A DNA stretch of 64,000 nt from Gemmatimonadota bacterium. Its GTDB lineage: Bacteria > Latescibacterota > UBA2968 > UBA8231. The notes beneath the pieces were generated by a model. The model was not told the DNA's origin, did no database searches, and saw only the letters and a program-made list of their open reading frames with translations. The stretch is from the NCBI GenBank assembly GCA_038153405.1, contig JAYOYH010000010.1:1-64000 (forward strand). Direction: 5' to 3'. Positions 5,335 through 39,009 of this stretch are shown piece after piece (the first letter of the stretch is position 1; each line of letters begins with the position of its first letter). Both the position numbers and the translations under genes were made by a program.

Positions 5335-7260
5335 TTAGTAGGCTATGGCTATAGTGCCCGTATGAACTTCTTCAAAGGCGTCGGCGCGTATGCGCATGAC
5401 CCAGATATAGGAACCGGGCACTAGGCCCTTGCCATCTGCCCCACGGCCATCCCAGCGCTTTTCGACCGGACCGATGCGGTGTTCATCGGAAAATACCGTA
5501 TGCACTTTGCGCCCGGCCAAATCGTAGATCTCCAGCACTACGGGGGTTGGCAGCGTTAGCTGCAGCAAGTTGAAAAAAATGTCGAGCTCGTCGTTGACGC
5601 CGTCGCCGTTGGGCGTCAACACTCGAGTGGAAAAGAGGATTTGGCCGACGAGCTTTCCAACCTGCGCTTGGGGAATGGCCACCGCTAAGCTAGCCAATTC
5701 GTCGCTGTCCTCAGGGCCAAACGATACGGCGTTGCCCGCTTCGAGGATCTGCGGCACGGACGGCCAGCGACTGTTGTAGGCGCGCCCAGAAAAGGTCGAG
5801 CCAAAGCGAAAAATAGGCAGATCAAATGTGAACTCCAGCAGATCGCCGTCGCCGTCGATCAGGGGAAAGGACAGCACGAAGCGATCCTCGTTATTGGCCA
5901 CGACGTCGAAGTCGACCGCTTCGCCATTGATGCGCAGGTTGCGAATGGCCGACACCTCGATATTGGTGTCGACTTCCAACCGATCGTAACCGCGCACGCT
6001 GCCGTTGGCCTTGAGCAGCACGGCGTAGTTAAAGCTAGCCGCTTTTTCGGCTTCGGCCAGACGCGGAAACACCTCCGCGCGCAGGGTGTCGGCGATGGGA
6101 GGCTGCAGGTAGTCAAACTGCAGGCGGGCCACCTGCCGCGCATCGAATATGCGGCCGTTGAAGTCGAAGCGGAACTGCACGTAGCGCCGCGGACCCGGTG
6201 CCGTAATTAGCTGGCCATTCTCGGCCGACTTCCACGGGCTCCAATGCTCTTCGTCCTCTATGAGCGGCCCTCTGTTGAGGCGATCCAGCTGGTAGTAGTC
6301 CGCTCCGGGTACTTCAATTACAAAGGGATCGCCGAACTCGCCCACCCCCTTGCGCTGGTAGACGACGGGGGTGTCGTCTAGACCGGTGCGAACTCGCACG
6401 CCGAGTGCGGAAAAGGCTGCCTCACCGACGGATTCCTCGATCCAGCGCACCCGACCAATCGTCGCCCGATCGCCCAGATCGATTAGATCGGTGAGGTAGC
6501 GCGCTTCGCTCAAATAACCCGTGCCATAGACCTCGACTTCATCGATCTCAAACGGCGTCGAAGACAGCGAGCGCACCTTGATAAGGCGCACGTACTGCGG
6601 TGGAACGTTCACGTCTACAATGGGCGACTCATTTTTTTCGTCGCGTGCGACCAATTCGTCGGGGGCATTCTGCGCCGTATTGGTCTGGCGATCGTTAATC
6701 CACACCTCGTATCCGCGCATAAAGTAGTCCTGGAACGGTGCGTTGGGCGTGGGCACCACCGTATTGCGCGGATAGAAGCGCACGCGGTGAATGCCCACCG
6801 GCATGCCAAAATCGAGGATAACTAAAATTCCGCGCGCATTGGCCTCTGGATTGGACAGCGTTGGCTTGCGCTCAAAGGCCACGTTGTGATCGCCGTTGAC
6901 CGTTCCCTCTAGCTGCAAGCGGCGCACCGCGCTGGAAATCAGCAACGAGTTGGGTGCCGTAATGCTGCCGCGGTCCAGCAAGACGCGCGATGCGATATTT
7001 TCCTCCAGTTCAAAAAAGCGCGGGCTAATCCATCCGGGGCGCTGCAGAAAGTCGATAGCATCTTCGGGCGTGTTAGTCGTATCCACTCGGCCGATAGCCG
7101 AGTCGCGCACGAGAATCTCCGGATCGATGCTACCGCCCCCTTCGCTCCAAGGCCGACCGCCCAAGCCAAGAGTAAACGTGCGCACGGACTGGCCGCTGGC
7201 CGGCGATATGCCCAGCGCCGCGCCGACGAGGATCAGTAGGATAAGCCGCTGCCATCGCAT
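5335..7260 (-). CDS. Secreted discoidin/galactose-binding-like protein with FlgD-Ig/CHU_C-like C-terminal domain
   Basis: Signal peptide; LDFGMPVGIHRVRFYPR, EIDEVEVYGTGY, WSPW...PGPRRYVQFR; C-terminus TPNGDGVND...IYDLAGR...WDGRG...PGSY...IAIAY. Confidence 0.75.
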   Translation of the reverse strand: MRWQRLILLILVGAALGISPASGQSVRTFTLGLGGRPWSEGGGSIDPEILVRDSAIGRVDTTNTPEDAIDFLQRPGWISPRFFELEENIASRVLLDRGSITAPNSLLISSAVRRLQLEGTVNGDHNVAFERKPTLSNPEANARGILVILDFGMPVGIHRVRFYPRNTVVPTPNAPFQDYFMRGYEVWINDRQTNTAQNAPDELVARDEKNESPIVDVNVPPQYVRLIKVRSLSSTPFEIDEVEVYGTGYLSEARYLTDLIDLGDRATIGRVRWIEESVGEAAFSALGVRVRTGLDDTPVVYQRKGVGEFGDPFVIEVPGADYYQLDRLNRGPLIEDEEHWSPWKSAENGQLITAPGPRRYVQFRFDFNGRIFDARQVARLQFDYLQPPIADTLRAEVFPRLAEAEKAASFNYAVLLKANGSVRGYDRLEVDTNIEVSAIRNLRINGEAVDFDVVANNEDRFVLSFPLIDGDGDLLEFTFDLPIFRFGSTFSGRAYNSRWPSVPQILEAGNAVSFGPEDSDELASLAVAIPQAQVGKLVGQILFSTRVLTPNGDGVNDELDIFFNLLQLTLPTPVVLEIYDLAGRKVHTVFSDEHRIGPVEKRWDGRGADGKGLVPGSYIWVMRIRADAFEEVHTGTIAIAY

Positions 7261-7263
7261 GGA

Positions 7264-9933
7264 TCAGAGACCCGCGTTAACCGTGAGAAAGAACAGGCTG
7301 GAGCGCTCGTCGTCGCCGCCGTCGAGATGGCGGTTGCCCAAACGAACCCCTGTGCGCAGGACGAGTTGGTATCCCATATAGCCGACCTTATTGGTAAGCT
7401 GTCCAACCCACGTCCAGCTGCGCGAGCTTTCGCGCACCGCTTCGCTCTGGCCGTCGAGCAGGCTAAGCCGGCTCAGCTCGATGCCCACCTGCAGCTGCGT
7501 GTTGAACAGCTGGCGACCGTAGCGCGGAAAGTAGGCCACCCCTACCGACTCGGCCATGAGGGGCTGCGTCCAGATGAGGAACAGCGTTTGCTCGGCTATC
7601 GTCGTTTCTTCGAGCAGCGCACTAAAGGGTCGATCGCGGCGCACCTCACTCTTAACGCGCGGCTCTAAGACGGCCAGGCCGATGGGAATGCTCCACTCGC
7701 CCTTGTTTATTAGTCCGAGAAAACCGCTGCGATAGCGCCCCTCGCGCTCGCGCACCGATTCGGATTCATCGCGCTGCCATAGCCCTTCCCACTTAACGCG
7801 GTGCAAGAAGTGCGTACCATTCCACAACTCGTGCTCGAAGTCCAAGTAGAACGTATTCTGCCACGTATTGCGCAGCGGCAGCAGGTCGAATACCCTGCGC
7901 ATGCGCCCCAGCGCTCCGGCCGGCTGAGTCCACTGATTGATGTCGTCGGGAATGTCGTCGCGCACCACTTTGCCGAGTTCGAACAGGCGCAACAAACCCC
8001 AGCGATGGCGCCATGACCAAGCCCAGAAACCATACCAACTGCGCGTGCGCCCATCGCCGGAGAGACGCCGCATGTCCTGGCGACCTGCCAATAGCAACAT
8101 ATCGGGGCCAACGCGAGCGGATAGATAGGCGTTAAAACCGCGCAGATCGCGTTTGAAGGGATAGTCGGGCAGGTCGTCGTCCTCAAAGCGGTCAACCGTG
8201 CCGTTGTGATTCATATCAAAACCAAATAGGTACTCGGGCCGATCGGAGCGAAAGCGGAGAAACGGCTCGTCGTAGTCAGGCTGTAAATTGAGGTTTTGGT
8301 TGTGGTCAAATATGAAGTCGCCGTTCTCGTCGTAACCAGGCCAAACCGTCGCATTCCACGGCTGCAGCGGCCTTTCCCAGTCGGGCACGGCGTTGAAGTC
8401 ATCGTCGTCGTCGACAAACTCGTAGAGCTGAGGCACGCGGTCTTTATAGCGAATAGAACCGCTGGCCTCGGTCAACCAATAGTTTGTCGCATAGCTATCG
8501 TCAATAGAAAATCCCTCGGCGTAGAGCGCCCACGGATACCGCTTGTAGAGCGCTGTGCCATAGGCTGCCGACGCCTGCTGCACGGCGCGATAACCGCGGG
8601 GTATATTAGGGCTGGGATACTGCCCATAGCGCCGATTGACGACTAGCTCACCCATGGTCGAAAGCCCCTTCCAATCGCGCAAATCCCAGTTAAAACCAAT
8701 CAATTCGTTGGCGGTAGGCAGCGCGTAATCGAGGCGCAGCACCGTGCCGTTACTGCGATCCGTTACGTTGCCGCTCGCCCGATCAAAGGTGAGGAAAACG
8801 GGTTCGGGGTCGCTGCGGTCGCCGTCGGTTTGCAGATTCGATGCCATCTCTATTCGATAGTCGTTGGCCAGCGAAAGTTCGACGCGGGCGCGGCTGAGAT
8901 CGACGGAATTGATGCCCTCGTAGTCGAGCGACTCCAAGTCGTAGTGCAAAACGATGCGCTCTGCTCCGGAAGCCACTAGCGTGCTGCCCTCGGAGCGCCC
9001 CCCTTCGACAAAGGGCAAAAAGCCAATCTCGCTGCCGCGGATTTGGCTGCCGCTGGTGTCGGTCAAAACGATGTCGTACGAAAAGAGCGCCGGCCCGCCC
9101 GTTCCGTCGGCCGGCGAATCATCGCGCACGCTCACCCAGAGATCCTGTAGAGCCTGATTTTGATTGGTCGTTAGCACGCCGGCAAAGGGATTGCCGCTGG
9201 CAAAGTCTTCCTTGCTGCGCGCGTTGTGCGCGCTGACGTAGGTCAAGCCAAAGCGCAGGTTGTCCGTCGCATCCACATCGATGTGCCCTCCCATAAGATT
9301 GGTCACGTCGGTGCGCGAATCGCGATTGGGCTCACTAGGCCGCGACAGGATCATACTGGCCAGCAGACGATCGGTAGCGTAGTCCATGCGCATGCCGTTG
9401 AAGCGGGGCTTGTAGAAGGTGAGCGGCGTAAAGTTGGTGTATATCTGATCGCCGATCATCAGGCGATAGGTGCCGCGGCCGTCGCCGTCGCTAGCAATCA
9501 CCAAGCGGCTGAAAAAGCTGGAGTAGGTATCGCGCCGCTCGGGACTAGCGGGTCGCTTCATAATGACGCTTCCCTGCGATGCGGCCTGCGTCTGCGTCCA
9601 GCTGTAGACCAGCCACCCGCGACCGAGCGGCGACCCAAAGCTGTCGTACCACTCCGAGCCTTCCAGCAGCTGGGCGACATAGCGCCGATAGTCCCCTTCG
9701 GCATAGCGCGTCTCCTGCGCGTACCAGGGCTGCGCGTAGGTTTCGAAAAGATGGCGCGGAGCGTACCATTTGTGAATTTCGGGCAGGGCATATTCGACGC
9801 CAAAGCGCGGCGCGAACGCGGCGTCTACCCCCCCGCCCAGCGCCGGTCGTTCGGCCGGCAGGTACTGCGCATCGACCCGATGGCATAGCGCAACAAATGC
9901 GCAGAGAGCACCCACGTATAGCAACGACCGCAT
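7264..9933 (-). CDS. Large exported putative beta-barrel with Asp-rich loops (copy 2 of 3)
   Basis: Start reassigned to ATG 9933 (MRSLLYVGALCAF..., signal peptide VDA-Q), overlapping the upstream stop as TGATG. Motifs KWYAP, FTPLTFYKP, DDSPADG, PDYDEPFLRF, DMNHNGTVDRFEDD; ends FFLTVNAGL. Confidence 0.7.
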   Translation of the reverse strand: MRSLLYVGALCAFVALCHRVDAQYLPAERPALGGGVDAAFAPRFGVEYALPEIHKWYAPRHLFETYAQPWYAQETRYAEGDYRRYVAQLLEGSEWYDSFGSPLGRGWLVYSWTQTQAASQGSVIMKRPASPERRDTYSSFFSRLVIASDGDGRGTYRLMIGDQIYTNFTPLTFYKPRFNGMRMDYATDRLLASMILSRPSEPNRDSRTDVTNLMGGHIDVDATDNLRFGLTYVSAHNARSKEDFASGNPFAGVLTTNQNQALQDLWVSVRDDSPADGTGGPALFSYDIVLTDTSGSQIRGSEIGFLPFVEGGRSEGSTLVASGAERIVLHYDLESLDYEGINSVDLSRARVELSLANDYRIEMASNLQTDGDRSDPEPVFLTFDRASGNVTDRSNGTVLRLDYALPTANELIGFNWDLRDWKGLSTMGELVVNRRYGQYPSPNIPRGYRAVQQASAAYGTALYKRYPWALYAEGFSIDDSYATNYWLTEASGSIRYKDRVPQLYEFVDDDDDFNAVPDWERPLQPWNATVWPGYDENGDFIFDHNQNLNLQPDYDEPFLRFRSDRPEYLFGFDMNHNGTVDRFEDDDLPDYPFKRDLRGFNAYLSARVGPDMLLLAGRQDMRRLSGDGRTRSWYGFWAWSWRHRWGLLRLFELGKVVRDDIPDDINQWTQPAGALGRMRRVFDLLPLRNTWQNTFYLDFEHELWNGTHFLHRVKWEGLWQRDESESVREREGRYRSGFLGLINKGEWSIPIGLAVLEPRVKSEVRRDRPFSALLEETTIAEQTLFLIWTQPLMAESVGVAYFPRYGRQLFNTQLQVGIELSRLSLLDGQSEAVRESSRSWTWVGQLTNKVGYMGYQLVLRTGVRLGNRHLDGGDDERSSLFFLTVNAGL

Positions 9934-12431
9934 CAGTAGACCACGTAAACGGGCACCGCAGCGCCCAGTCCCTCGTCGGCGTCTGCGGCAAAGTGAACGC
10001 GCAGCACATAGACCCCCGGCACTACAACGCTTCCGCCTTCGTCGCGCCCGTCCCACTGCAGGGCGTGCTCACCGCTGGCATTTGCTCGCTCAAAAGACAG
10101 GTCGCGCACCTGGCGGCCAGCCAAATCGTAGACGCTGACGGCAAAGTGCACGGCACCCGTCAAACGGTATACGGTAAACGAAACCTGCGCCGCGTCGTTT
10201 ATGCCGTCTCCGTTGGGCGTAACTACTCCGGGTACAGCCCGCAGTCCCGATAGGAGAGGTGCTTTGAGCAGGTCGGTTACCACGACCATCGACTGACTCC
10301 CCGCTAGGCTGCTGGCATCCCCGTCGCTGGCCACCTGCACTGTGCCGGGCAGCCCGCTGTTGGCTAGATCTACGTAAAAGGTCGTGCTGTTTAGAAAAAC
10401 GCGGGTGCGAAAAGTAATCGCGTAGAGGGTAGCCCCGCGCCGGGCCACCTGCGGCAGCGCGAGCTCGAAGTAGCCTGGCCCCTCCGCGCTGAGCGACCAC
10501 GGTCCCGGCCACAGCTGCTGGCCAGCACCAAAGCGCAGCGACGCCTCGCTGCCGGAGCGAACGGATACCAACTGCAAGCTGGCCGAAGAACTGGCGCGCA
10601 CTTTGAGGCGATCAAATCCTGGATCGCCGCCGCCAAAGGTCGGCAGCACATACACCGTAAACTCCGCTTCGCTACCCGCCTCAATGCCGCGCACCGGCCA
10701 AACTTCGGCAAATAGCTGGTCGACCAGCGGCGCGCTAAAGCGAAGCTGCACGCTGCGCAGGGCCGTAGCGCGCAGCGGATCCACGCTGCGCAACCGCGCC
10801 TGTACTTGTACCATGCGGCGGGGATTGGGCGAGCGAAAGGCGTCGCCGCTGCCCGCATACAGCTCGCTCCAATTGCTCCACTTGGGGCCGATTAATTCGT
10901 TGACGACGACCGGTCCACGGTGTTCCTGATTGCGGATATTAACCCAGCGCTCTTCGCTAATCTCGCGTCCGTAGCGGTCGTAATAGTGCGCATCTTCTAT
11001 GATGTCATCGCCCGAACGAGTGCGCACTTCTAGCCGCGCACCGGGCGGAATATCGGCATCCCACTCCAAGCTGGAGAATATCTGCGCGCGCGCTAGCTTG
11101 ATCAGCGGCGACGTCATCACTACGTCCGACACGTAGCCCTCTCCATAGGCCTGCACTTCGCTCAGCGTCGCCTTTTCTGCAGTCGAACCAACCAACTCCA
11201 AGCGACGCAGCTCGATGTGCTGGACTTCCTGTGGGATAAACTGCTCTTCCAATTGCACAAACGAGTTGGGATTAAAGCGCTCGTCAAATTCCTTCCACAC
11301 CAATTCCCCCGACGGATCCAGCCCGCCGTCCGATATGCGAATCTGATAGGCTACCGGCGGATTTTCCGGACTGATTAACCGCACGCGATCCAACCAGTAT
11401 TTGGCACCTAGGTCTATTTCCAACTGGTTTTCGTTTTTGAGAGGATCGTAGACGCGCAGATCAAACGAGGACATGTGCAGCCCGTCGGTAAGCTGGCGGC
11501 GCAGGAGATTGCCAAAGAGCGTCTGGTCCTGGAACAGTTCCCGCTGCGTGAGCGCTACCACGTTGTCTCCCAGCTCAACCACCTCGACTTCAGCGAGGCG
11601 CGGCCGCTCGCGGCGGTAGTAGCGCACCGGTCCGCGATCCACCTCGGGCAATAGCGCATAGGTATCGGGCAATACGGCAATTTCACGCCCGGCAGCCGTC
11701 ACCCGAAAGTAGTCGATCGCCCCCCGATCCTCATCCCCGAGCGCATCGTACTCTTCCTTGCCCACCTCGGCGCCGCGCGCGTTATCGCTGTCGAGCGCAT
11801 CAATGCGCACAAACTGGGTAACGGCACCTTCAACTCCACTAGGAGCGGGTCGCAGCGGTGCCACATCAAAGGAAAACTCGCGCTGGTCTTTATTGCGGAA
11901 GTTCACCTGTCCTACGCGCAAAAACTGGCGCCGATTGTCGCTGCCAAAAGCCTGGCGTCCATCGGAAATCATAACGCGAAATTTGAGAAAGGGATCGCCC
12001 ATACCCTCTTCGACAAAGCGCACGACGATGCGCTTGGCAATGACCGTGCGCCCGAGGTCGACTTCGACGTACCAGCGCTCGACCTCGTCGGCGCTGTCGG
12101 GCTCCCAGTACGTGTTGATATCGCCGTCGATGACGTGAGCCGCGTCGACAACGTTGCTTCCCGCGGCACTCACGCCCCCATACAGCGTGTCCTCCTCGGC
12201 ATTGACGCGAAAAAATTGGTCGGCATTGCGCACGGCATTGGTCTCCGAGCGCAAATAGCGCGGTCGCACGGTGCCGGTGTCATCGATCTGGCGCACGCCT
12301 AGGGGCGACTCCCAAACCTGCCACTGGTCCGCTCCTTCGATGACTACGCGATTCGACTCCAACCGATAGCCTTCTTGTGCATGCACCCAGCTGGCCGCGC
12401 AGAGGGCGAGCAATAGCCAACGCGGCGCCAT
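9933..12431 (-). CDS. Secreted two-discoidin-domain protein with FlgD-Ig/CHU_C-like C-terminal domain
   Basis: Signal peptide VHA-Q; IDGDINTYWEP...VDLGRTV (F5/8 type C-like) and a second IDLGAKYWLDRVRL unit; C-terminus TPNGDGIND...WDGRD...VYVVY. Closest to 33160-36501. Confidence 0.75.
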   Translation of the reverse strand: MAPRWLLLALCAASWVHAQEGYRLESNRVVIEGADQWQVWESPLGVRQIDDTGTVRPRYLRSETNAVRNADQFFRVNAEEDTLYGGVSAAGSNVVDAAHVIDGDINTYWEPDSADEVERWYVEVDLGRTVIAKRIVVRFVEEGMGDPFLKFRVMISDGRQAFGSDNRRQFLRVGQVNFRNKDQREFSFDVAPLRPAPSGVEGAVTQFVRIDALDSDNARGAEVGKEEYDALGDEDRGAIDYFRVTAAGREIAVLPDTYALLPEVDRGPVRYYRRERPRLAEVEVVELGDNVVALTQRELFQDQTLFGNLLRRQLTDGLHMSSFDLRVYDPLKNENQLEIDLGAKYWLDRVRLISPENPPVAYQIRISDGGLDPSGELVWKEFDERFNPNSFVQLEEQFIPQEVQHIELRRLELVGSTAEKATLSEVQAYGEGYVSDVVMTSPLIKLARAQIFSSLEWDADIPPGARLEVRTRSGDDIIEDAHYYDRYGREISEERWVNIRNQEHRGPVVVNELIGPKWSNWSELYAGSGDAFRSPNPRRMVQVQARLRSVDPLRATALRSVQLRFSAPLVDQLFAEVWPVRGIEAGSEAEFTVYVLPTFGGGDPGFDRLKVRASSSASLQLVSVRSGSEASLRFGAGQQLWPGPWSLSAEGPGYFELALPQVARRGATLYAITFRTRVFLNSTTFYVDLANSGLPGTVQVASDGDASSLAGSQSMVVVTDLLKAPLLSGLRAVPGVVTPNGDGINDAAQVSFTVYRLTGAVHFAVSVYDLAGRQVRDLSFERANASGEHALQWDGRDEGGSVVVPGVYVLRVHFAADADEGLGAAVPVYVVY

Positions 12432-14305
12432 TAGTAGACGACTCCCAGGGTACCCTCGCGCTCGACCGGGCCACCATCAACGTCGATCGATAGCCTGTAC
12501 ACGTAGATGCCGGGCGCGGCGAGCAGCCCCGTGGCATCGCGGCCGTCCCAGCGATAGGACTGGTCGCCGTTTAGCTGGAAGCCGCCGTCTATACGCCGCA
12601 ACAAACGGCCGTCCAGCGCGTAGATATCGAGGTGCGAAGCGGCCGACTGCGTCAGTTTGAGCAGGGCATAGCGCAGTTCAAAAACATCGTTTATACCATC
12701 CCCGTTGGGCGAAAACACATTGACCTTTGCTCCTACCCCGTCCAGCAGCGGCAGGCGTCCTTCACTGCTGGCCAAGCGCACGATTAGACTGCCCCCGAGC
12801 GACAGTGGTTCGACGTCGCCTTCCTGCGCCGATTGGTGCACGGTGAGCAATTCGCCCTCTATCAGACGACGGTCACCGGCCTGCACATCAAAGCGCGTCG
12901 CATCGCGAAATACGGTCCCGCGCAGAACGACCTGTATAAACGTCCCATCCTGTAAAATCGATCGCCGTAGGCGGATCGTCGTGCCCTCTTCGGCATGGTA
13001 ATCAGCGGTGAACTCCACTTCGCGATCGTCGACTAACACCTTGTCTATCGCATCAATGCGCGCCGCTGTCTGTATGCGCAGACTTTGAAATCCCGTGTCG
13101 GCGTTGGGCAAGAGCGAACCGTCTGTACGCCAAATGCGCATGCGCGTCTGCAGCGATATGGTAAACTGAGTCTGCTGACCGGCTTCGACCACAAGCGGCG
13201 ATATTTCCGCTGCCAAGGCATCAGCAATGGGCGGGTTGAGGTACTCTATGACCAGGCGCTTTATCACTGTACCAGGTCCATTAATCTGCAGGCGAAACTG
13301 AATGTAGGGATGGTTGCTGGGCGAGCGCACCTGACCGTCTGTGACCGTCTCCCAAGGGGACCAATCGGGGTTGCGCAAAATAGGCCCCTGTTCAACGGAG
13401 TCGAGGCGAGTATACTGGGCCATGCTGACCCGCTCGCGGTCTCCACCAACCCCGGTATAGCGAAAGTAGTGCAGCGGTTCTCGGTCCGGCCCCGTGCGCG
13501 TCTGCACCGTCAGCGGCAGATCGGTGATGTCCCCTCCATCATAGCGCACCTTCCCCCACAGCGGACGCGGCCCTTCGGTGGCGAGGATGGGCACAGATAC
13601 ATACTCTCCGGCCACGCCGATTCCATCGCTATAGACCTCCAACTCGGCGATTTCCCACGGCTGATTTTCACGCACCTGCAGGCGTATGAAGCGCACGTTG
13701 CGACTCTCGAATATGCGCTCTACCACCGGTTGGCGATTGGGGTTTGAATTGAAGAAGTTGAACACCGATTCAAACGGCCGTTCGAGTAAGTTGCCCGTCT
13801 CGACTTCACCCTCGTCGCCCAACCCCCCATTGGTCGACAGGCTAAAAGAGCGCGGAAAGAGCGTCTTGTGCTCGGGATCCTGGCGCGGGTAGAGCCGTAT
13901 GCGATCGACGCGGAAGGTCGCTCCCAAATCGATGTAAAACGTCGAGGTGCGCTCGACGCCGTAGCGCGCGGCAAAATCGTCTGGATTAAACGCCGTTGAA
14001 TCCACCCCGTCGAACATCACCTCGGCACCGGCGATAAACGTCGCCACGCCTCCGCTGCCGCCCGGCACCAGCACATACCCTGCACGCTCGGGCGTAGCCG
14101 GCGCCAAGTTGCTGTTGGGCTGCACATCCCACGTCCAGATTGAATCGGCGCGAATGGCCAAAAAGCGCGCCTCGGATACGCCCTGGTTCCAGCGCGCAAT
14201 GCTGGCGCGCCAGCCCACGCCCAGCGAGTCGACAGCACGCACAGGCGCGACGGCGCCCCACAGGCAGCACAAACTGACCACACCCCAAACGAGTAATCGC
14301 GTCAT
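12431..14305 (-). CDS. Secreted discoidin-like protein with FlgD-Ig/CHU_C-like C-terminal domain
   Basis: Start reassigned to ATG 14305 (MTRLLVWGVVSL..., GAGG upstream, signal peptide). MFDGVDSTAF, IDLGATFRVDRIRLYPR, WEIAELEVY; SPNGDGIND...LGVVY. TAATG overlap with the next gene. Confidence 0.75.
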   Translation of the reverse strand: MTRLLVWGVVSLCCLWGAVAPVRAVDSLGVGWRASIARWNQGVSEARFLAIRADSIWTWDVQPNSNLAPATPERAGYVLVPGGSGGVATFIAGAEVMFDGVDSTAFNPDDFAARYGVERTSTFYIDLGATFRVDRIRLYPRQDPEHKTLFPRSFSLSTNGGLGDEGEVETGNLLERPFESVFNFFNSNPNRQPVVERIFESRNVRFIRLQVRENQPWEIAELEVYSDGIGVAGEYVSVPILATEGPRPLWGKVRYDGGDITDLPLTVQTRTGPDREPLHYFRYTGVGGDRERVSMAQYTRLDSVEQGPILRNPDWSPWETVTDGQVRSPSNHPYIQFRLQINGPGTVIKRLVIEYLNPPIADALAAEISPLVVEAGQQTQFTISLQTRMRIWRTDGSLLPNADTGFQSLRIQTAARIDAIDKVLVDDREVEFTADYHAEEGTTIRLRRSILQDGTFIQVVLRGTVFRDATRFDVQAGDRRLIEGELLTVHQSAQEGDVEPLSLGGSLIVRLASSEGRLPLLDGVGAKVNVFSPNGDGINDVFELRYALLKLTQSAASHLDIYALDGRLLRRIDGGFQLNGDQSYRWDGRDATGLLAAPGIYVYRLSIDVDGGPVEREGTLGVVY

Positions 14306-14514
14306 CGCCTCAATTGTCTTTGCTCGCGCCCCGTTGCCTAGCGCCAACCCCATGCTATTTGCCTTGTAAATGAACGAGTTAAATAAACGGCATAGGGCGA
14401 CATTTTCAAATAATTCCACCCGTTGAAAGCCATTCAAAAGACGCACTGACCTTCCGTTCGGTCATACAAATAAGCTCGCAAATCCAATTGTGGGGAACGG
14501 CCTTTTTTCTTAGT

Positions 14515-14543
14515 TTGTACCTTCGTATTGTAATGTATACACT
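14515..14543 (+). promoter_or_regulatory. Possible sigma70-type promoter for 14580-17249
   Basis: TTGTAC (14515-14520), 17 nt, TACACT (14538-14543) in the AT-rich divergent intergenic region; imperfect consensus. Confidence 0.4.
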
Positions 14544-17275: not shown

Positions 17276-17313
17276 TTCGGGGGCGAGGCATGATCTCGCC
17301 CCCGAATTCTTTT
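17276..17313 (+). terminator. Intrinsic terminator after 14580-17249
   Basis: Perfect 12-bp stem TTCGGGGGCGAG / CTCGCCCCCGAA, 7-nt loop, followed by TTCTTTT. Confidence 0.75.
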
Positions 17314-17325
17314 ATCTATCATTCC

Positions 17326-19443: not shown

Positions 19444-19464
19444 CGAATCGAGCCATCCATTTTT

Positions 19465-21129: not shown

Positions 21130-21132
21130 ATC

Positions 21133-22494: not shown

Positions 22495-22501
22495 TCAGAC
22501 G

Positions 22502-27768: not shown

Positions 27769-27784
27769 GCCCTAGTGCACCGCT

Positions 27785-30334: not shown

Positions 30335-30344
30335 GGCTCTCTCC

Positions 30345-33098
30345 TTATTCCAGACCAGCGTAAACCGTTACGAACATCGCCGTCTCGGTTCGCGCTTTAT
30401 CAGCCGATGCACGGTCGATTCGCGCGATGCGGAAACCCGCCTGCGTCCACAAATTATACCCTTGGTAGTCGACGTTATTAGTGAACTGCAGCGCGTATAC
30501 GAGCTCGTTGCGATCGGAGCGCAGCAGGTTGTCCTCGAGTTGTTTTCTATACTGCTCGACGAACAAGTACTCAACGCCGGTCTGCAGCTCTGTGCGAGAG
30601 AGGATCGGCACGCGCGCAATCAGCGAAAATAGCTCGCGCAATTCCGTCGTCGCTACGCGGACCTGAGAATCTTCTCTCTCGGCGGGACGCTGGCGCTGAA
30701 ACTCGCTCTTCCAGCGCGGCTGGAACTTGACAATGCCGACGTCAAACGTGTAGTCCAGCTTGTTGAGTATGCCAAGGAACGACGCCGATTCGCGTATATC
30801 TTGCTGCTCGACCGGACGCTGATCGTAGTCGATCTGGTTTACTACCTCCCACTTTACGCGATTCTTGAACTGCAATCGATCGCTGGTATACTGATAGCCA
30901 AAGTAGAAGGTGTTGGCCCACGCATCGCGAAACGGCAGCGGATCGGTGTAGGGAACGAAAGCGCCACGCGACCCCTCGCGGACGATCCACTCAATCATAT
31001 CATCGCGAATATCGTCCTGCACGCGGCGCAGGTTATTAAAGACCTGCACGCGGCCCCGGCGCGAAAAATCGCGATCGTAGGTCAGCATTAGGTAATTGCT
31101 GACGTTGGAGCGATCGTCCGCCAGCTGGCGCTCGTCGAGGCGTCCAACGGTCAGACGGGCCTCGGGACCCAACTGCGTGCCGATATAGGCGTTGTAGCCG
31201 CGGCGATCCCGCTTGTAGAGATAGTCCGGCAAATTGTCGTTTTCAAAGCGATCGACAATGCCGTTGTTGTTCATATCCACACCGAAGAGAAATTCCGGCC
31301 GATCGGACGCATAGCGCAAGAAGGGCTCCTCGTAGTCGGGCATCGTATTTTCCCGGACATCCGAGTCGTTCTGGTTGAAGTCGTTTACAAAGTCGTTGTT
31401 CTCGTCGTAGCCCGGAAAGATACGCGTATCCTGCGAAAAGTTAGAGCGCAGCCAGTCGGGATTGCGGTCTTGGTCGTCATTGTCGTCGACGAACTCGTAT
31501 ACAAAGCGCGTATTGTCGTCGTAGTTGATATCGGCGGCGTCATTCTGCGTTCCCGCCAGGTACGCGCTGGTACTGTAGTCGGGATCTACGTTGTAGACTT
31601 CGCCAAAGGCGTAGTAGGGATAGGCGCGCTTGTAGACGTTGACGAACCAGGCGTCGGCCTGATTGTTGAAGGCGCGATGCTGGGTCACATCGCTTTCCGA
31701 ACGGCGCGGATAGCGGAAGTGCTGGCGGTTGCGGTCCCATTCGCCGGAGAGATAAAAACCGCCGACATCGCTCACGTCGATGGTCACGCCAAAAATCTCG
31801 TTGGCAACCGGCAGGCCGTAGTTGACCCGTACGAACTGCTGGTTCGAACCGTCCTTGACGTTGCCGTCTGCACGCACGGTGCGCTCGGGGATGCCTTCGG
31901 ACAGCAGCACCGGCTGGCCGTTTGAGTTGAGCTGGCGGTTTGAGGTGACGTCGATTCGATAATCATTGGCCAGCAGTAACTGGAACTCTATGCTCTTAAT
32001 CTGCTCGGGCTGTGGACCGAATGAGTTGCGATATTCCGGCCCCTCGAGGTCGTAGACCAGGACGATGACCTCGTTGCCGTCGGCAGAGAGAAAACCCTCG
32101 CGGCGGAAGCCGCCCTGCACAGACGGATGAAAGTCGAGGATGTTGTTATCGCCCAAGCGGCGGCGGTTGCTGATCTTGCCGCCGTCGATCGTCGTTATGA
32201 TCATCTCCTCCTGAAAGTAGGCCGCACCCGCCTGGCCGTCCTCCGGCGAGTCATCGCTCAGGCGCACCTCAATGCGCGAGACGTCGGCGTTGTTCTGCCC
32301 TTCCGTCAGGGTGCCACCAAAGGGATTGCCCTGAAAGGCCTGCCCCTTCGTTTGTGCGTTAAACGCGCTCAAATAGGTCGCACCGAGCTTTACAAAATCA
32401 CCGATCTGCACGGTTCCTCGCCCACCGACTAAGTTGGTGTCGTTGGAGCGCTCGCGCCCACCGCCGGTAGTGTTTCCCGTCGTGCTACCCGTGGCACCCG
32501 GTGAAGATGGACGAGAAGCGATAAACGTCGCCTCGTATTTATCCGTAGCCAAGTCCAACTGGATGCCTGCAAACGTCGGCTTGGAAAAGGTCATCGGCGT
32601 CAGCGTTGTGCGGATGCGATCGCCAATGGTCAGCGCGTAGGCATACTGGCCTTTCTGATCGGAGGCAATGACCACGCCGGAAAACCAGCTGGTGAAGTTC
32701 GTAGTCTTGAACAGGTTGCTACCGGCCGTCTGCGGAGCAGAAATACGCCAGTCGTAAATGAGCTGTCCGCGCGTTATGTAGTTGCCGTACAGATCATAGA
32801 AGTAGAACCCTTCCTGCGTCGTGTTCACATACCGTTCATACTTGCGACGGGCGTAGTTGGTGTAGTCCTGCTGACGCCACTGGTACTCGTTGAAGAGCTC
32901 CTGCGGCACATACCACTTCTTCACCGCTGGATCCAACGCGTCAAACAACACACCCGAACCGTTCGGCTCATAGAATAGCTCGCCCCCGCGCCGGACGCCC
33001 AAACGCGAGCCAAAGTCTTCTTGTGCGAGCGCCGCATTGGCTTCTACTAACAGAACAGCAGCTGCTACAAACAGAAAAATACGTTTAGCGTTGTTCAC
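30345..33098 (-). CDS. Large exported putative beta-barrel with Asp-rich loops (copy 3 of 3)
   Basis: GTG start with SD GGAGGG; signal peptide ALA-Q; LFDALDP.VKKWYVPQEL, LTPMTFSKP, DDSPEDG, DDNDDQDRNPDW, DMNNNGIVDRFEND; ends MFVTVYAGLE. Confidence 0.7.
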   Translation of the reverse strand: MNNAKRIFLFVAAAVLLVEANAALAQEDFGSRLGVRRGGELFYEPNGSGVLFDALDPAVKKWYVPQELFNEYQWRQQDYTNYARRKYERYVNTTQEGFYFYDLYGNYITRGQLIYDWRISAPQTAGSNLFKTTNFTSWFSGVVIASDQKGQYAYALTIGDRIRTTLTPMTFSKPTFAGIQLDLATDKYEATFIASRPSSPGATGSTTGNTTGGGRERSNDTNLVGGRGTVQIGDFVKLGATYLSAFNAQTKGQAFQGNPFGGTLTEGQNNADVSRIEVRLSDDSPEDGQAGAAYFQEEMIITTIDGGKISNRRRLGDNNILDFHPSVQGGFRREGFLSADGNEVIVLVYDLEGPEYRNSFGPQPEQIKSIEFQLLLANDYRIDVTSNRQLNSNGQPVLLSEGIPERTVRADGNVKDGSNQQFVRVNYGLPVANEIFGVTIDVSDVGGFYLSGEWDRNRQHFRYPRRSESDVTQHRAFNNQADAWFVNVYKRAYPYYAFGEVYNVDPDYSTSAYLAGTQNDAADINYDDNTRFVYEFVDDNDDQDRNPDWLRSNFSQDTRIFPGYDENNDFVNDFNQNDSDVRENTMPDYEEPFLRYASDRPEFLFGVDMNNNGIVDRFENDNLPDYLYKRDRRGYNAYIGTQLGPEARLTVGRLDERQLADDRSNVSNYLMLTYDRDFSRRGRVQVFNNLRRVQDDIRDDMIEWIVREGSRGAFVPYTDPLPFRDAWANTFYFGYQYTSDRLQFKNRVKWEVVNQIDYDQRPVEQQDIRESASFLGILNKLDYTFDVGIVKFQPRWKSEFQRQRPAEREDSQVRVATTELRELFSLIARVPILSRTELQTGVEYLFVEQYRKQLEDNLLRSDRNELVYALQFTNNVDYQGYNLWTQAGFRIARIDRASADKARTETAMFVTVYAGLE

Positions 33099-33159
33099 GA
33101 AAACCCTCCCTTATTCACCAGCATTTGTCTGACAATCTATTCCAAATGCTCGAAGTACG

Positions 33160-36100
33160 TCAATATGCCACATTGACAATGCGCATCAGCTCGCTGTCGC
33201 CCTGATCGGCTTCAACGATGATGCGGCAAATATACATACCCGGAGGCACCAACGCCCCCGACGCGTCGAGCCCGTTCCAGCGGAACTCCTGCGCACCAAC
33301 CATCCCGGCCATACCGCTTCCCTGTCCGCGCCCCACCAAGCGCCCACTAAGGTCGAATATCTCCACACCTAGCGGACGCTCTTCCAACACTTTGAGCAGG
33401 GCGAAACGCACGACGAGTTCGTCGTTTATGCCATCGCCGTTCGGCGTAAATACAGCCGCCATATCAACGTCTTGAATGAGCGCATCACTCAGCGCCATTA
33501 GGCTGACGCGAGCCGTTGAGGATTCGACCAGTTCGGTAGCATCCTTTGACGACGTATCAACGCGCTGAAAAACGCCCTCTTCGCCGTTGGACGAACGGAC
33601 GAAACTGCCAAACTCAATGCCTTCGCGGAAGCTCTGGGATTCAAACTGCACCTCGACAATGGCATGGCGTCCTCCCAACAAGTTTCCATTCACCGATTCG
33701 GGGAAGCGCACCCATAGCGAGTCGCTGCGCGTAGCCATAACCATGAGCGCCTCGCCCGCCTCGTTGCGAAAGGTGCCGTCGGCATCCCGACCATAAAACC
33801 GCGTGAAATCGGTCTGTACGGCAGTCGTCAGGGAGGCCGTAGGATCGATGAGAGAGGCCTGTTCAGATACGGATACCGTTCCGACCCGCACGCCTTTCAA
33901 CTCGGCAGCGAGTGGAGTGACGATAAGAACTTCATTGAAGCCATCGCGCACCGTCACGTCAGCCGGATCCGGTGCAGCCGCTCGAATAAAGTACGAGAAG
34001 CTCTGCTGCGAAAGGGGATCAACGCCCGTAGGCGCCACGTAATCGACGGGAAGCGAAAGGAGCTCCGTCACGGGACGGCCCTTACCCTCGTCCGTAAGCA
34101 GCGCTAGTTCGCCCGCTAGTTCTAACGACAGGGGCGGCGCCAAATCGACGCGCAGTTCGCGAACGCGGGCCGTCTTGAACGGTTCTTCGGAGGAAATATT
34201 AACGCGAATCTGCAAAAACTTGCGCGGGTTAGGCGAGGTTATCGTCGCCTCGTTGCGCCCGTTGGTCGGCGCATACGACTCGCTCCACTCGCTCCAGCCG
34301 ACAAAGGCCAGTTCGCCTTCGCTGTCGTAGGAAGAGCGCGGCTCGCGGCGGAGTTTCTTTCCGTCTTCGTCTACCAATCCATCGCCGTCGTTGTCGATCA
34401 GGTCGATGGGATCTTCATCCGTCACGCCATCGCCGTCGTCGTCGACGCGACTCTCGTGCCGTTTGTTGTCTGGCAAGGTCTGCCAGATATTCCATGCGGT
34501 CCACTCCAGCACCAGCGCATCGTAGACTTCCTTTGCAACCTCCTGCCGCTCTTGGGCTCCGGCAATTTCGACCACTTCGTAGTAGGTGAAGTTGGTATCG
34601 GTTTGATCGGACGTGCGCGTTTGCACCTGCAGGCGCACGTCGGGATGGTTCTCCAACGGCTCAATCCGCTCGACGGTTTGCCCGGTAACCGGGTCGGTGT
34701 CGCGAATAATCACATCGCCTCCCCAGGCAATCTGCGGCAGCGTTTTGCGAATAAACTCCCCGCGCGCATCCGTCAGGGAGATCGGCGGCGAATAGGCCCA
34801 AACGCTAACGGGATACCCCTCCCCATAGAGTTGGATCTCGCCGAGGGTTGCCAGCGAACCATAGCGTCCCGACTGCTGCCCGGTCACGTCGATATCGCGC
34901 ACCTGCAAAAAGCGGATTTTGCGCGGGGAAAACGTCTCGCGGAATATGCGCACGACTTGGTCGTGATTGTCCACGTGCTCGGCAGAAATAATGTTGTCCC
35001 ACTTAAGCCCCTCTTCCAACTGGGGAAAATCGTCGCGCTGTTGCATGCTGAGCGGCTTGAGCAGCGTGCCGTCTGACACCAAGATATCCGGGCCTAGGAA
35101 AGCGCCTAAATGGCTCTGGTTGATGCGCTTGTTAACCACGGAGACGTTATCCACCCAGAATACGGCACCCAAATCGTACCAGGCCGTTCCCTTAAGATAG
35201 ATCGGAGACCACGTATTGGCCTGCCATTCGGAGTCGTAGAGCCCATCCGTGGCCAACTCGGGGGCTCCAAGGCCACCATTTTCATAGGAGGCGCCACCGC
35301 GCTTTTCCGGCTGCAGGGCGTAATTATCGCCCTTGGCCCACACCTGCACTTCGGAAATGCGCGGCACTTCACGGCTGTAATAGAGTATGGGACCGCGCTT
35401 GTCCTCCGACAGGGCTTCAAACTTAGCGCGAGCATTCAGGCCGTTTTCGTCGTCCTGCAGCTCCACGAGCAGGCCGCCCGCCGTCAGGCGCTGAAAGACC
35501 AGTGCACCTCTCTGTTCCGAGGGAAGTGCCTCGTACACCACCCGGCCCTCTTCCCCAGCCCCGAGGAACGCATCGCGCCACAAATCGGAATCGGTGACCT
35601 TAATGCGGATATACTGCAGAAACGTGCCGTCTATATCGGGCAGTCCATCCAAATCCCAGTCGGCGCGATCTAGCGGGCGGAGGGGAAAGGTCATCTGCAC
35701 GTAGCGCCCGTCCGTGCCCGGCGTGGGGCGGAGCACGAGTTCGTTAACCTCTTCTCCTCCACCGCCCGAACACGAGGTGCCTCCGGCATAGCCTGCCGAC
35801 TCATCGCGCACGCATTGAGCGATTTTTCCGGCGGCAAAGTTGGTCGCAACCTGTCCGACGAGCGAGAAGTTCAGGCTGTTACCCAGTGGAAAGGGAAAGC
35901 GCTCGCCCATGGACGCAAAAACGGCAAATGATTTCAGTGGTTCACCGAGAAATTCTTCTCCTACCTGGCCAGCCGGAAAAATAACCGTGACGCTGTCGAC
36001 GTAAACCAAACGCCCTAGGTCGATTTCCAATTCCCACTTGCGCAACCCATCGACGGAAAACTCGTGCGTTTCGTCGAGGCGACGCTCGTAGTTGGAAGCA

Positions 36101-36501
36101 ACGGAGGGTTCCCAGTAGGTCTCGAGATTGTCGTCAAGGATAGCTAAGGACCGGGTGTTATTGGATAAACTGCTGGCCCCACCGCTGACCACATCGCCGC
36201 CAGCGCGCACCAAATCCTTATAGCTAAAGTTGGCTGCCGTAGGGCCGATGTTGATATTGCGCCGATAAAAGACCGGACGCATCCCCTCCGCATCGACCTG
36301 AAAGATGTCGGCGTCGGTAATGGGCACGTTAAGCGAACCGACGAGGTCGTTTTGATAGCTCCAATTGAGCCAATGCGAAGCCCTATCGACTCGAATCGAG
36401 TTGCCAAATAGCCTGTAGGCGTCACCGACCTGAGACAGTGCAGGGACTGCCAACAGGACTCCTAGCAACACAGCGTGGCACACAGTCATCCGATTTTTCA
36501 T
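33160..36501 (-). CDS. Secreted two-discoidin-domain protein with acidic insert and FlgD-Ig/CHU_C-like C-terminal domain
   Basis: Signal peptide; ILDDNLETYWEP...IDLGRLV, second YDLGAVFWVD unit; two DxDGDGxxDED repeats; FTPNGDGIND...IVNVAY. Confidence 0.75.
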   Translation of the reverse strand: MKNRMTVCHAVLLGVLLAVPALSQVGDAYRLFGNSIRVDRASHWLNWSYQNDLVGSLNVPITDADIFQVDAEGMRPVFYRRNINIGPTAANFSYKDLVRAGGDVVSGGASSLSNNTRSLAILDDNLETYWEPSVASNYERRLDETHEFSVDGLRKWELEIDLGRLVYVDSVTVIFPAGQVGEEFLGEPLKSFAVFASMGERFPFPLGNSLNFSLVGQVATNFAAGKIAQCVRDESAGYAGGTSCSGGGGEEVNELVLRPTPGTDGRYVQMTFPLRPLDRADWDLDGLPDIDGTFLQYIRIKVTDSDLWRDAFLGAGEEGRVVYEALPSEQRGALVFQRLTAGGLLVELQDDENGLNARAKFEALSEDKRGPILYYSREVPRISEVQVWAKGDNYALQPEKRGGASYENGGLGAPELATDGLYDSEWQANTWSPIYLKGTAWYDLGAVFWVDNVSVVNKRINQSHLGAFLGPDILVSDGTLLKPLSMQQRDDFPQLEEGLKWDNIISAEHVDNHDQVVRIFRETFSPRKIRFLQVRDIDVTGQQSGRYGSLATLGEIQLYGEGYPVSVWAYSPPISLTDARGEFIRKTLPQIAWGGDVIIRDTDPVTGQTVERIEPLENHPDVRLQVQTRTSDQTDTNFTYYEVVEIAGAQERQEVAKEVYDALVLEWTAWNIWQTLPDNKRHESRVDDDGDGVTDEDPIDLIDNDGDGLVDEDGKKLRREPRSSYDSEGELAFVGWSEWSESYAPTNGRNEATITSPNPRKFLQIRVNISSEEPFKTARVRELRVDLAPPLSLELAGELALLTDEGKGRPVTELLSLPVDYVAPTGVDPLSQQSFSYFIRAAAPDPADVTVRDGFNEVLIVTPLAAELKGVRVGTVSVSEQASLIDPTASLTTAVQTDFTRFYGRDADGTFRNEAGEALMVMATRSDSLWVRFPESVNGNLLGGRHAIVEVQFESQSFREGIEFGSFVRSSNGEEGVFQRVDTSSKDATELVESSTARVSLMALSDALIQDVDMAAVFTPNGDGINDELVVRFALLKVLEERPLGVEIFDLSGRLVGRGQGSGMAGMVGAQEFRWNGLDASGALVPPGMYICRIIVEADQGDSELMRIVNVAY

Positions 36502-36558
36502 ACTCTATCCTCTTTGAGGAGCATTTCGCGCAGATCGTCGCAATGCGTTTCCCGCAGC

Positions 36559-39009
36559 TTAATAGGCGACGGAAATGAGTTTCGTTCTCGCCTCGCCCGC
36601 ATCGTCCGCTTCCGTCGACAGCCGCAATATGTATAGTCCTGGCGGCACCAGGCTGCCCATGTCGTCCCTTCCATCCCACTGTTCTGAATAGCCACCTGAG
36701 TTCAGCAAGCGCTCGATGAGGCGCAGGCGGTTCCCATTCAGATCGTATACCGCAAGCAGGACCGCGCGGGGCTCTAACAAGCGCTGGACGTCAAAGCGGA
36801 CCTCTAACAGATCGTTGACCCCGTCGCCGTTCGGTGTAAAAGGGTTGGGAGTCGTTTCGAAGTTCGCAACTAAATTGCTCCCCTGCGCCGAGATATCGGC
36901 GATAACCGCAAGCGAGTTGCGGTCGGAAAGCTGCTCTGTAGCATCAAAATCGATGACATCGCTGCCCTCGACCGGCTGCGGCAGAAAGAGAGCCAAGGTG
37001 TCGGCAGCTGCGCCCAACGTGAGGATTCCGTTATTGGTAAAGCGGCGATCGAAGCTCGATGCCAGCGTATCCAAGAACACGTTGGCCGCGAAGTTGGTGC
37101 GGAAGTCAATCACGCGCGCGCGGAAGTTGACTTTCACAACCGCCTCCCGATCCAGCCCATCGTCACCGGGGGCAATCGTCGGAAATCCGATCACAAATTG
37201 CTCGTCATCAACGAATAGCGCGCTGAACTGATCATCATCGAAATCGGGGTTTTCGCTGGCAGACAACATGCGCACATCGCCGGCACCCATATCGATTGAC
37301 ACAGATTGAATGTTTTCGACGCGGGCAGGCGTGAAGACCTGCAGCCGATTGAAACCGTTGTTATTCGCTCCCAGGGACGCTCTAATCGCAATGGCGAAGG
37401 TCGTGTCTATACCAGCCTTGACGTCGACCGCGGGAGCGATCTCGCCGACCACGGCGTCGGTGATCTGCGGCGCCGAGTATTCAAAGCGCAGGTTGCGCAC
37501 AATCGTCGCCGACTCCGATGATAAACTTCTGAACTCAACATCGATCTGAATAAAGGGCCTACCACTCGGCGAGTTGATGAGCTGGCCATTGGTCACCTGC
37601 TGCACGCCGCTCCAGTACTCGAGATCCGGCTCAATTTTCCTGCGCAAGTTGCCGGGCAGCGCCTGATATTCGGCGCGCGTCAGACGAACGGATTCGCGCT
37701 CGTCGGGCAGCAGCGCGCTGAATATTTCGCGAACTTCTAGGTTGAACTGTGGGTCGTTCAAGTCGATCTGCTCGCCGCGCGTCTTCGATCCGGCGCGACG
37801 GTCCACTACAATAGCGTTTTCCGGCTTCCACTCGACCTGACGCTCGAATTCGTTGACGCGAAACAGCACATCCGGCTCGGCATTAACACCCGTCTGAATG
37901 CGCACGATGGCACTCGACTTGGTCGGGTCACCGACCTTATCCTCTTCCCAAAAAATGCGACCAAGGGTCGACGGCGGCAGCGGCAAGGCGATAGAGCGAT
38001 AGGTCGCCTGCGGCACAAAGCCGTCGGCAAAGAATTCCATCTCGCCCAAATCATAGTCGAGTTCGGTCTGAAAGTCCATGCGCGCGTAGCGCATTTTGGC
38101 GGGCGGATCGAACGCCACCGCCACTGTGTCCTCGACGTTAACGGGCGCACTCTGCTCGGGAACAAAAGTGGGAAACGTCGGGGCAATTTTGGTGAATATG
38201 GGAAAGGCCAACTGACCGACGGTCGGATCGTCCAAGCTCAAGCCGGCAATGACTTTTTCCGTGCCGGCAATACCCCGATAGAACGTGTAGGCAGAAATGC
38301 GAACGGGCGCCTCCGGACTGGGATATACCCGCATGAGGCGAATGGGAAAAAAGCGTCCGAGGTCGACATACAGCGTCCAGACCTGCTTGACGTCCTGCCC
38401 AACGCGGTCGATGCGCTCAAAGTGGGTAAGCGGATCGCCGTCAAATACGCGGCCCAATCCCTCTTGGAGCCGCTGTAAGGTCAGCGCACGCTCAAAAATA
38501 CCCAGTGTCGTGAGATTGAGACCCTTATTGTATTTGTCTCCTCCCGGCGGGCGCGGAAACGACTCCGCTACGTTAATCAGCGCAGCGACCGTATCCACGC
38601 CGGCTAGGCGCAGCATCTGCACGTCTTCCAGCGACCGAGGAAAGTCACCCCAGCGCGAAATGAGCACATCACCAGCGGCCACGGAGCGATCGCCGAGGGT
38701 GGCATCCAGCTGCGCTACGACTTCGGATCGGGCAACGTGTTGCGAAAATTCAAATAGAATGGAGTCAGCACCAGCGCTGCCCTCCTCAACCTGCGGGACA
38801 GGCACCATTTGCACCGGCTCGATCGGCGCAATCCCGTCGGGAACGCGTAGGAGATCGACGGCTTCGAGATAGCGCTGCTCGGAGATAGGTCCCTGTTTGG
38901 CATCAACCCAGGAGATATCTTGCGGAATGGAAAAGATCTTGAGTTCGGCAGGGCTTTCGCCCACCAGGCCCGCCAGCACTGCTACGGCGATACGCTTTGA
39001 CCATCTCAT
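36559..39009 (-). CDS. Secreted discoidin-like protein with FlgD-Ig/CHU_C-like C-terminal domain
   Basis: Start reassigned to ATG 39009 (MRWSKRIAVAVLAGL...). VFDGDPLTHF, VDLGRFFPIRLMRVYP, SPSGRPFIQ; PNPFTPNGDGVND...WDGRD...ISVAY. Confidence 0.75.
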   Translation of the reverse strand: MRWSKRIAVAVLAGLVGESPAELKIFSIPQDISWVDAKQGPISEQRYLEAVDLLRVPDGIAPIEPVQMVPVPQVEEGSAGADSILFEFSQHVARSEVVAQLDATLGDRSVAAGDVLISRWGDFPRSLEDVQMLRLAGVDTVAALINVAESFPRPPGGDKYNKGLNLTTLGIFERALTLQRLQEGLGRVFDGDPLTHFERIDRVGQDVKQVWTLYVDLGRFFPIRLMRVYPSPEAPVRISAYTFYRGIAGTEKVIAGLSLDDPTVGQLAFPIFTKIAPTFPTFVPEQSAPVNVEDTVAVAFDPPAKMRYARMDFQTELDYDLGEMEFFADGFVPQATYRSIALPLPPSTLGRIFWEEDKVGDPTKSSAIVRIQTGVNAEPDVLFRVNEFERQVEWKPENAIVVDRRAGSKTRGEQIDLNDPQFNLEVREIFSALLPDERESVRLTRAEYQALPGNLRRKIEPDLEYWSGVQQVTNGQLINSPSGRPFIQIDVEFRSLSSESATIVRNLRFEYSAPQITDAVVGEIAPAVDVKAGIDTTFAIAIRASLGANNNGFNRLQVFTPARVENIQSVSIDMGAGDVRMLSASENPDFDDDQFSALFVDDEQFVIGFPTIAPGDDGLDREAVVKVNFRARVIDFRTNFAANVFLDTLASSFDRRFTNNGILTLGAAADTLALFLPQPVEGSDVIDFDATEQLSDRNSLAVIADISAQGSNLVANFETTPNPFTPNGDGVNDLLEVRFDVQRLLEPRAVLLAVYDLNGNRLRLIERLLNSGGYSEQWDGRDDMGSLVPPGLYILRLSTEADDAGEARTKLISVAY

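Follow-up and report, generated by a model that had tools for sequence, protein, structure and literature searches.

Among the described cargoes of type IX secretion systems (T9SS), those closest to the proteins treated here carry type B C-terminal domains (CTDs), as in the pairs SprB–SprF, Fjoh_3952–Fjoh_3951 and PG1035–PorP. Such cargo depends on a carrier whose gene usually lies directly downstream (PMC12618676), and it remains uncleaved on PorP-like, 14-stranded barrels (PMC9143113, PMC10202324). Pairing is mostly one-to-one, with one Flavobacterium johnsoniae shuttle serving three cargoes, and secretion of SprB-CTD is blocked by mutation of motif E (PMC12618676). Among the conserved residues of type A CTDs, a near-terminal lysine is the only one that contacts PorV (PMC10994853), and the CTDs of PorU and PorZ are retained on PorV and PorQ, a precedent for an uncleaved CTD on a dedicated PorV-like barrel (PMC10202324). 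Here we describe six paralogous genes between positions 5335 and 39009 of a 64,000-nucleotide stretch (the window) from a genome of the phylum Latescibacterota (the host genome; assembly GCA_038153405.1, contig JAYOYH010000010.1), whose products carry a type-B-like CTD ending in tyrosine. They belong to a single protein family with signal-peptide-like N-termini, type B motifs A to D and no basic residue at positions −6 or −1, and their genes are linked to giant outer-membrane barrels, to small PorV-like barrels and to an ExbB/ExbD motor. As our leading, still tentative reading, we propose that this family is exported via SprA and that a dedicated small barrel of the PorV/PorP family keeps it, uncleaved, on the cell surface.

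All six genes are present with the endings that a first-pass annotation of this DNA had given. They encode Tyr-tail protein 1 (5335–7260, minus strand; 641 aa, CTD at about 5335–5652, ending IAIAY), protein 2 (9933–12431, minus; 832 aa with an F5/8 type C domain, VYVVY), protein 3 (12431–14305, minus; likely start ATG 14305 in a frame open to 14446, LGVVY), protein 4 (14580–17249, plus; 889 aa, ISLVY), protein 5 (33160–36501, minus; 1113 aa, VNVAY) and protein 6 (36559–39009, minus; likely start ATG 39009 in a frame open to 39042, ISVAY). In each, the sequence [TS]PNGDG lies 92–95 residues before the C-terminus and is followed by W[DN]G and PGxY. The same annotation had called the domain type-B-like, which holds: the CHU_C family PF13585 scores over its gathering value of 27 in five of the six (37, 27.3, 28.2, 36.9 and 30.2 bits), with 33160–36501 below it at 24.1. 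By the curated TIGR04131 test, however, the domain is a variant of the type B CTD and not a member. None of the six reaches that cut-off of 35 (16–20 bits or no match), the domain spans about 105 residues against the 85 positions of the profile, and the two proteins that pass in a scan of the whole genome (37 and 35.4 bits) are both of the tyrosine class and both outside the window. Nor does any of the six pass the type A profile TIGR04183 (cut-off 23, best score 16.2); six tyrosine-class proteins elsewhere in the genome do so narrowly, at 23.1–27.5 bits.

The first-pass annotation had further taken the domain for a hybrid of a type B CTD and an FlgD-type Ig domain, an idea that we reject. FlgD_ig (PF13860) scores over 27 in four of the six window proteins, but its match lies inside that of CHU_C; the two profiles cover the same residues, and hence describe one domain and not a fusion. 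The SprB type B CTD itself contains TPNGDG, WDG and GDY (PMC12618676, supplement), so that WDG and GxY are simply motifs C and D of type B. Both motifs are also found in a domain of streptococcal C5a peptidase, and TPNGDG occurs together with WDG/GxY in 593 of 1330 domain copies from 150 multi-copy repeat proteins, the best 150 of a search of 1.84 billion proteins that serves as a control and not as a census. Across the 52 members of the class in the host genome, [TS]PNxD[GA] is found in 51, WxG in all and PGxY in 51, and none ends in the K or R that closes motif E of type B. Type B CTDs typically have a basic last residue, as the first-pass annotation had stated. Two F. johnsoniae tails agree with this, with SprB ending GHFTLYR and a tail derived from Fjoh_3952 ending GYLYLIK (PMC12618676); the window tail GTIAIAY stands in register with the former, Y replacing R/K. 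What distinguishes the domain is thus its last strand only: the fold is ordinary, and the tail and its context are unusual.

How strictly is the tyrosine kept? Profiles for the TPNGDG class and for type-A-like CTDs had the last 8 residues removed, which kept the classification blind to the tail, and the class counts leave out two internal matches and matches below 20 bits. In the host genome, 50 of the 52 TPNGDG-class proteins end in Y, one in H and one in W, whereas none of 51 type-A-like proteins does (28 R, 17 K, 4 Q, 2 D; Fisher p about 2e-27, with paralogs that are not independent); among other open reading frames (ORFs) of at least 500 aa, 19 of 765 end in Y. A basic residue at −6 is present in 38 of the 51 type-A-like tails and in none of the 52, and in 2/228 and 0/96 tyrosine-class tails of relatives, while mean pairwise CTD identity among the 52 is 36%. 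Both tyrosine codons (TAT 23, TAC 27) and all three stop codons are in use, which excludes a cause at the DNA level. In relatives, a terminal Y is found in 219 of 228 proteins at 79 loci from the Genome Taxonomy Database (GTDB; otherwise 4 F, 2 H, 2 W and 1 K), in 118 of 120 among the homologs listed (120 of 256), in 95 of 96 at 67 metagenome loci, with one open ORF left out, and in 28 of 31 from distant genomes, where propeller proteins that do not belong to the family account for two of the three exceptions; these sets overlap and include kin. The claim of a tail that always ends in an invariant tyrosine is therefore right for the six window genes and, for the wider family, becomes a strong rule of about 96–99% that F, W, H and two K endings break. 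The fold itself does not need the residue, as the equivalent position of internal domain copies is Y or F in just 22 of 711 (a pattern-based count) and is mostly T or N. In unrelated repeat proteins, the last domain copy ends in Y or F in 11 of 43 and in K or R in 27. Large repeat proteins with a Y-ended last copy (P0017, P0019, P0038, P0060, P0070, P0101, P0103 and P0115) are a possible independent class of aromatic tails.

The term sorting domain, used in the first-pass annotation, has to be qualified. Without their CTDs the six window proteins still match one another at about 24–28% over long stretches, and all 52 bodies form one BLAST cluster (E<1e-5), unlike the 21 clusters of type A bodies. 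A quick CTD tree made without tails places the 52 and 22 distant tyrosine-class rows on one branch (SH-aLRT 82; 78 of its 125 forks are open). As all 52 carriers belong to one family, the tail cannot be called a modular tag. In every one of them the CTD is single and C-terminal, and this sets the class apart from the FlgD/Vpr Ig-like domains (PF13860), the Fn domain of C5a peptidase and the tandem CHU_C/FlgD repeats, which share the fold family and both motifs but occur internally or as repeats, without the tyrosine tail. Protein 1 combines a signal peptide, a CBM32/discoidin-like domain, Ig-like domains and the CTD. In its AlphaFold2 (AF2) model (pLDDT 90.7), the head matches the CBM32 structure 4a42 (Z 15.3, root-mean-square deviation (rmsd) 2.1, 123 residues aligned), further beta-sandwiches follow, and the CTD superposes best on PorU's own CTD (6za2; Z 12.7, rmsd 2.2, 99 aligned). 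From this model we predict a family architecture of CBM32-like head, Ig stalk and Ig-fold CTD, with heads that are predicted, from fold, to bind sugars. In structure the domain resembles the retained CTD of PorU most closely, and like type A CTDs it is an Ig-like beta-sandwich with a YDLxGR strand; it differs from the retained CTDs of PorU and PorZ in its many paralogs, its tyrosine end and bodies without a gingipain-type protease or PorZ body, and from type A CTDs in its TPNGDG loop, its lack of a basic −6 or −1 residue and its passengers, which are one family and not unrelated enzymes. No published account of this family was found in a search whose coverage excluded most subscription journals. 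Two of the proteins also contain acidic DxDGDG repeats that are probably calcium-binding, protein 4 at residues ~57–185 and protein 5 at ~698–720.

The host genome encodes SprA (TIGR04189), PorV (PF19572) and PorU (NF033707) over their cut-offs, PorU and PorV as adjacent genes on contig C91, together with seven genes over the PorV_fam cut-off and the 51 type-A-like proteins. SprA was found in 119 of 121 genomes of the phylum and in 67 of the 69 that are tyrosine-positive. Several PorV-family barrels that pass the cut-off also directly adjoin CTD genes with K/R, D or Q ends (C17:5391–6431, C19:35600–36670, C31:18131–19943 and C91:167–1216), hinting at further dedicated carrier pairs.

A small barrel resembling PorV, PorQ and PorP (1–777, minus strand, cut by the contig end) is our candidate carrier for the tyrosine class, and it is the genome's best match to TIGR03519, at about 35.3–35.6 bits (cut-off 90.55). 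Small barrels recur where the loci are simplest, and there, as for type B cargo, one lies directly downstream: in 11 of 20 loci chosen near the top matches from distant genomes (eight from family f10 and one each from f5, f7 and f14, four families in all) the Tyr gene is followed by a small barrel and then by giant barrel(s), with the small barrel an open frame of 306–404 aa, and host contig C7 repeats this order. Five of these twelve barrels were scanned, and they gave PorV_fam matches below the cut-off (33–76 against 90 bits). The 1–777 type and this downstream-neighbor type are two distantly related small barrels, 24% identical over 165 residues. Searched with a single query, orthologs of the former were found in 34/44 genomes of f1, 2/2 of f6, 2/3 of f9, 1/1 of f11 and 3/3 of f13, lineages with expanded tyrosine families; they were found in 0/11 genomes of f10 and in 0/52 genomes without tyrosine proteins. 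Five other genomes have two copies, 92–100% identical, one in the cassette and one among housekeeping genes, an arrangement that fits a role in trans. The host fragments 1–777 and C85:14275–14706 (L153) overlap without being identical, each at a contig end, which together with these pairs suggests concerted evolution of small-barrel copies and an assembly break here. In two relatives (L024 and L030) the window cassette continues with genes for a TPR protein of 1079 aa, ExbB and ExbD, all of which the host has on contig C85; in all, the host has three barrel-linked sets of TPR protein, ExbB and ExbD (C7:83622–88061, C34:20416–28219 and C85:8437–14224).

The giant barrels form a family of about 900 aa with 23 members in the host genome, three of them in the window, all on the minus strand: 2687–5320 (877 aa), 7264–9933 (likely start ATG 9933) and 30345–33098 (917 aa). 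The AF2 model of 2687–5320 (pLDDT 72.8, with poorly predicted N-terminal and acidic loop segments) shows 22 long strands by our count and an inserted beta domain. No Pfam or NCBIfam family matched, TonB-dependent receptors included. Fold searches returned generic barrels only, the best being SlpA (7zgx; Z 13.0, rmsd 5.8, 340 aligned), and query TM-scores were at most 0.27; the matches listed did not include PorV, PorP or SprA, and structural neighbors in the Atlas were without a Pfam family. In the window, gene 5335–7260 lies immediately upstream of barrel gene 2687–5320 and gene 33160–36501 sits 62 bp upstream of 30345–33098, whereas 14580–17249 is divergently transcribed and has no barrel gene directly downstream. 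Genome-wide, the gene after a Tyr gene is a giant barrel in 15 cases, another Tyr gene in 15 and something else in 16, with none within 400 bp in 6. A giant barrel lies within 5 kb of 31/52 Tyr genes, against 1/51 type A genes and 24/696 other long ORFs. The tyrosine class tracks the giant barrels in gene order, a check that the first-pass annotation had suggested, and also across the phylum, where both are present in 69 of 121 genomes and neither was found in the other 52 (families f2, f3, f4 and f8; at most 40 CTD candidates were scored per genome). The class was matched at E<=1e-19 in 63 of the 69, and six weaker matches were read as Tyr-ended genes; this co-occurrence rests on few independent lineages.

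We propose the following model. Tyr-tail proteins would be exported by Sec and would pass through the genome's SprA translocon. The tail, of the form G/R-x-hydrophobic-x-V-A/V-Y, would then steer them to the small barrel of the cassette and away from the PorV–PorU route of K/R-ended cargo; we infer that the tyrosine is a recognition element. The small barrel would capture the CTD via its Tyr-ended strand, and the cargo would escape cleavage by PorU. In lineages with a single Tyr gene the carrier would be the next gene, and in expanded lineages one or two small barrels of the 1–777 type, our best guess for the carrier, would serve all paralogs. In the weakest step of the model, the displayed proteins would partner the giant barrels by binding glycans at the surface, with motor-driven uptake as the most likely setting. 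SusC/SusD glycan uptake pairs likewise join a glycan-binding surface protein, whose gene neighbors that of a large barrel, to an ExbB/ExbD motor. The present proteins differ in bearing a T9SS-like CTD in place of a lipid anchor, and their barrels, with a putative role in uptake, match no Pfam family. The wider picture would be one of two T9SS routes in Latescibacterota, told apart by a residue-level code: K/R-ended CTDs would go to PorV–PorU, and Tyr-ended ones would have a PorV-like carrier of their own, which would place dozens of different lectin heads on a new family of giant, ExbBD-energized barrels for SusCD-independent glycan capture and uptake; we consider it possible but doubtful.

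Several observations weigh against retention on a dedicated small barrel. For 52 cargoes to share one or two carriers would depart from the mostly one-to-one rule of type B, and in the host genome a small barrel follows 1/52 Tyr genes while a giant barrel follows 15/52. The barrel at 1–777 stays under the PorV_fam cut-off (NF033709; 72.7 against 90 bits), and orthologs were not found, with the single query, in 10/44 f1 genomes or in f12 (0/1). No PorP/SprF (PF11751/TIGR03519) exceeds its cut-off in the 93%-complete host genome, and GldM and GldN gave no match there, although control genomes were blank for all of these as well. No SprA match was obtained in G043 (locus L110; 96% complete) or G058 (80%), both of which have a Tyr gene and barrels, G043 a small barrel and giant barrels. 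Since all members share ancestry, their conservation is not by itself proof of a signal, and the conserved motifs of type A serve mostly to specify the fold (PMC10994853). Two true family members end in K, namely L032:959–2857, the ortholog of window gene 12431–14305, and L194:2134–4566. The latter directly precedes a small-barrel gene.

It is conceivable, if rather unlikely, that the role of cognate carrier or anchor falls to the downstream giant barrel, with every Tyr CTD docking on the neighboring barrel of about 900 aa in place of PorP/SprF. A Tyr gene stands immediately upstream of 15/23 giant barrels in the host, of 109/138 at the GTDB loci and of 57/88 at the metagenome loci, although both of the latter sets were chosen by giant barrel; no type A gene (0/51) comes within 200 bp of one, and at 9933 the stop of gene 9933–12431 overlaps the start of barrel gene 7264–9933. 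The joint distribution over the 121 genomes points the same way, and giant barrel and upstream Tyr protein co-diverge (Spearman 0.92, n=108), as operon inheritance would lead one to expect anyway. This docking sits poorly with the 18/52 Tyr genes that have no giant barrel within 10 kb and with eight f10 genomes in which a single Tyr match accompanies 3–8 giant barrel matches (matches, not copy numbers), the small barrel lying between them. Known carriers are 14-stranded barrels of the FadL family (PMC9143113), against about 22 strands in the giant barrel model, and no PorV/PorP carrier profile matches the giant barrels. A complex prediction of barrel 2687–5320 with the last 135 residues of 5335–7260 gave scores of 0.07 and 0.30, the mark being 0.32, in a run that covered this pair alone, and was counted neither way.

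Alternatively, the tyrosine could be a structural cap inherited from one ancestor, the proteins using an ordinary carrier that does not read it specifically. The single body cluster and CTD branch, the Y/F-ended last copies of unrelated repeat proteins, the tolerance of K in two members and the fold-specifying character of type A motifs (PMC10994853) are compatible with a cap. We nevertheless regard it as improbable: the residue is kept at 96–99% despite 36% CTD identity, that position holds K/R in type A tails and in two type B tails but mostly T or N in internal copies, and the basic −6 residue has been lost in parallel. The proteins might, finally, not be T9SS cargo at all, but periplasmic or handled by the cassette's TPR and ExbBD proteins, the aromatic end being read as a beta-signal or by a tail-binding chaperone. 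An alternating hydrophobic tail with an aromatic end would resemble the beta-signal of outer-membrane proteins. The cassettes encode the 1079-aa TPR protein, ExbB, ExbD and peptidyl-prolyl isomerases (PPIases), the same domain occurs as a plain repeat module, and SprA was not found in two tyrosine-positive genomes. Against this stand the single, C-terminal domain of all 52 proteins, the PorV-like gene that follows the Tyr gene in the simplest loci and SprA in the remaining 67 of 69 tyrosine-positive genomes, and we judge such a fate quite improbable.

What is the relevance of these findings? They place SprA, PorV and PorU, together with their cargo, beyond Bacteroidota, the one phylum to which the reviews consulted restrict the system. 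They also connect the Tyr-ended cargo with a large, unnamed family of barrels that may contribute to the use of polysaccharides by uncultured bacteria, and the apparatus to which this cargo is attached may be new. One genome with 52 tyrosine-class CTDs (50 Y-ended), 51 mostly K/R-ended CTDs and several PorV-family barrels, together with the natural Y-to-K variants, offers a direct tail-swap test.

The remaining genes of the window provide the setting. The first cassette also encodes, on the minus strand, a lipoprotein-like protein of no family (811–1551; 8 paralogs in the genome) and a CBM9-like protein with a short WGxxK tail (1555–2496; PF06452 over cut-off) that recurs in cassettes. The second has, again on the minus strand, a parvulin-type, lipoprotein-like PPIase as its last gene (27785–29455), a paralog of the cassette lipoprotein (29570–30334) and a paralog of the CBM9-like protein with a WGxIK tail (39174–40079, likely start ATG 40079). 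Between the cassettes, at 17290–27768, lie genes for a PMT_2/TPR membrane protein, two FG-GAP/ASPIC-UnbV proteins, two TPR proteins and one GDSL/TPR protein. Three further proteins have a signal peptide and no Pfam match (54284–56002, plus; 40427–41284 and 46027–47064, minus), of which 54284–56002 resembles an outer-membrane protein with acidic repeats. Secreted proteins ending in [ST]WGxxK are encoded at 1555–2496, 39174–40079 and 45564–46046 (all minus), and 13 ORFs of the genome fit the strict pattern, which is possibly a second, short C-terminal signal.

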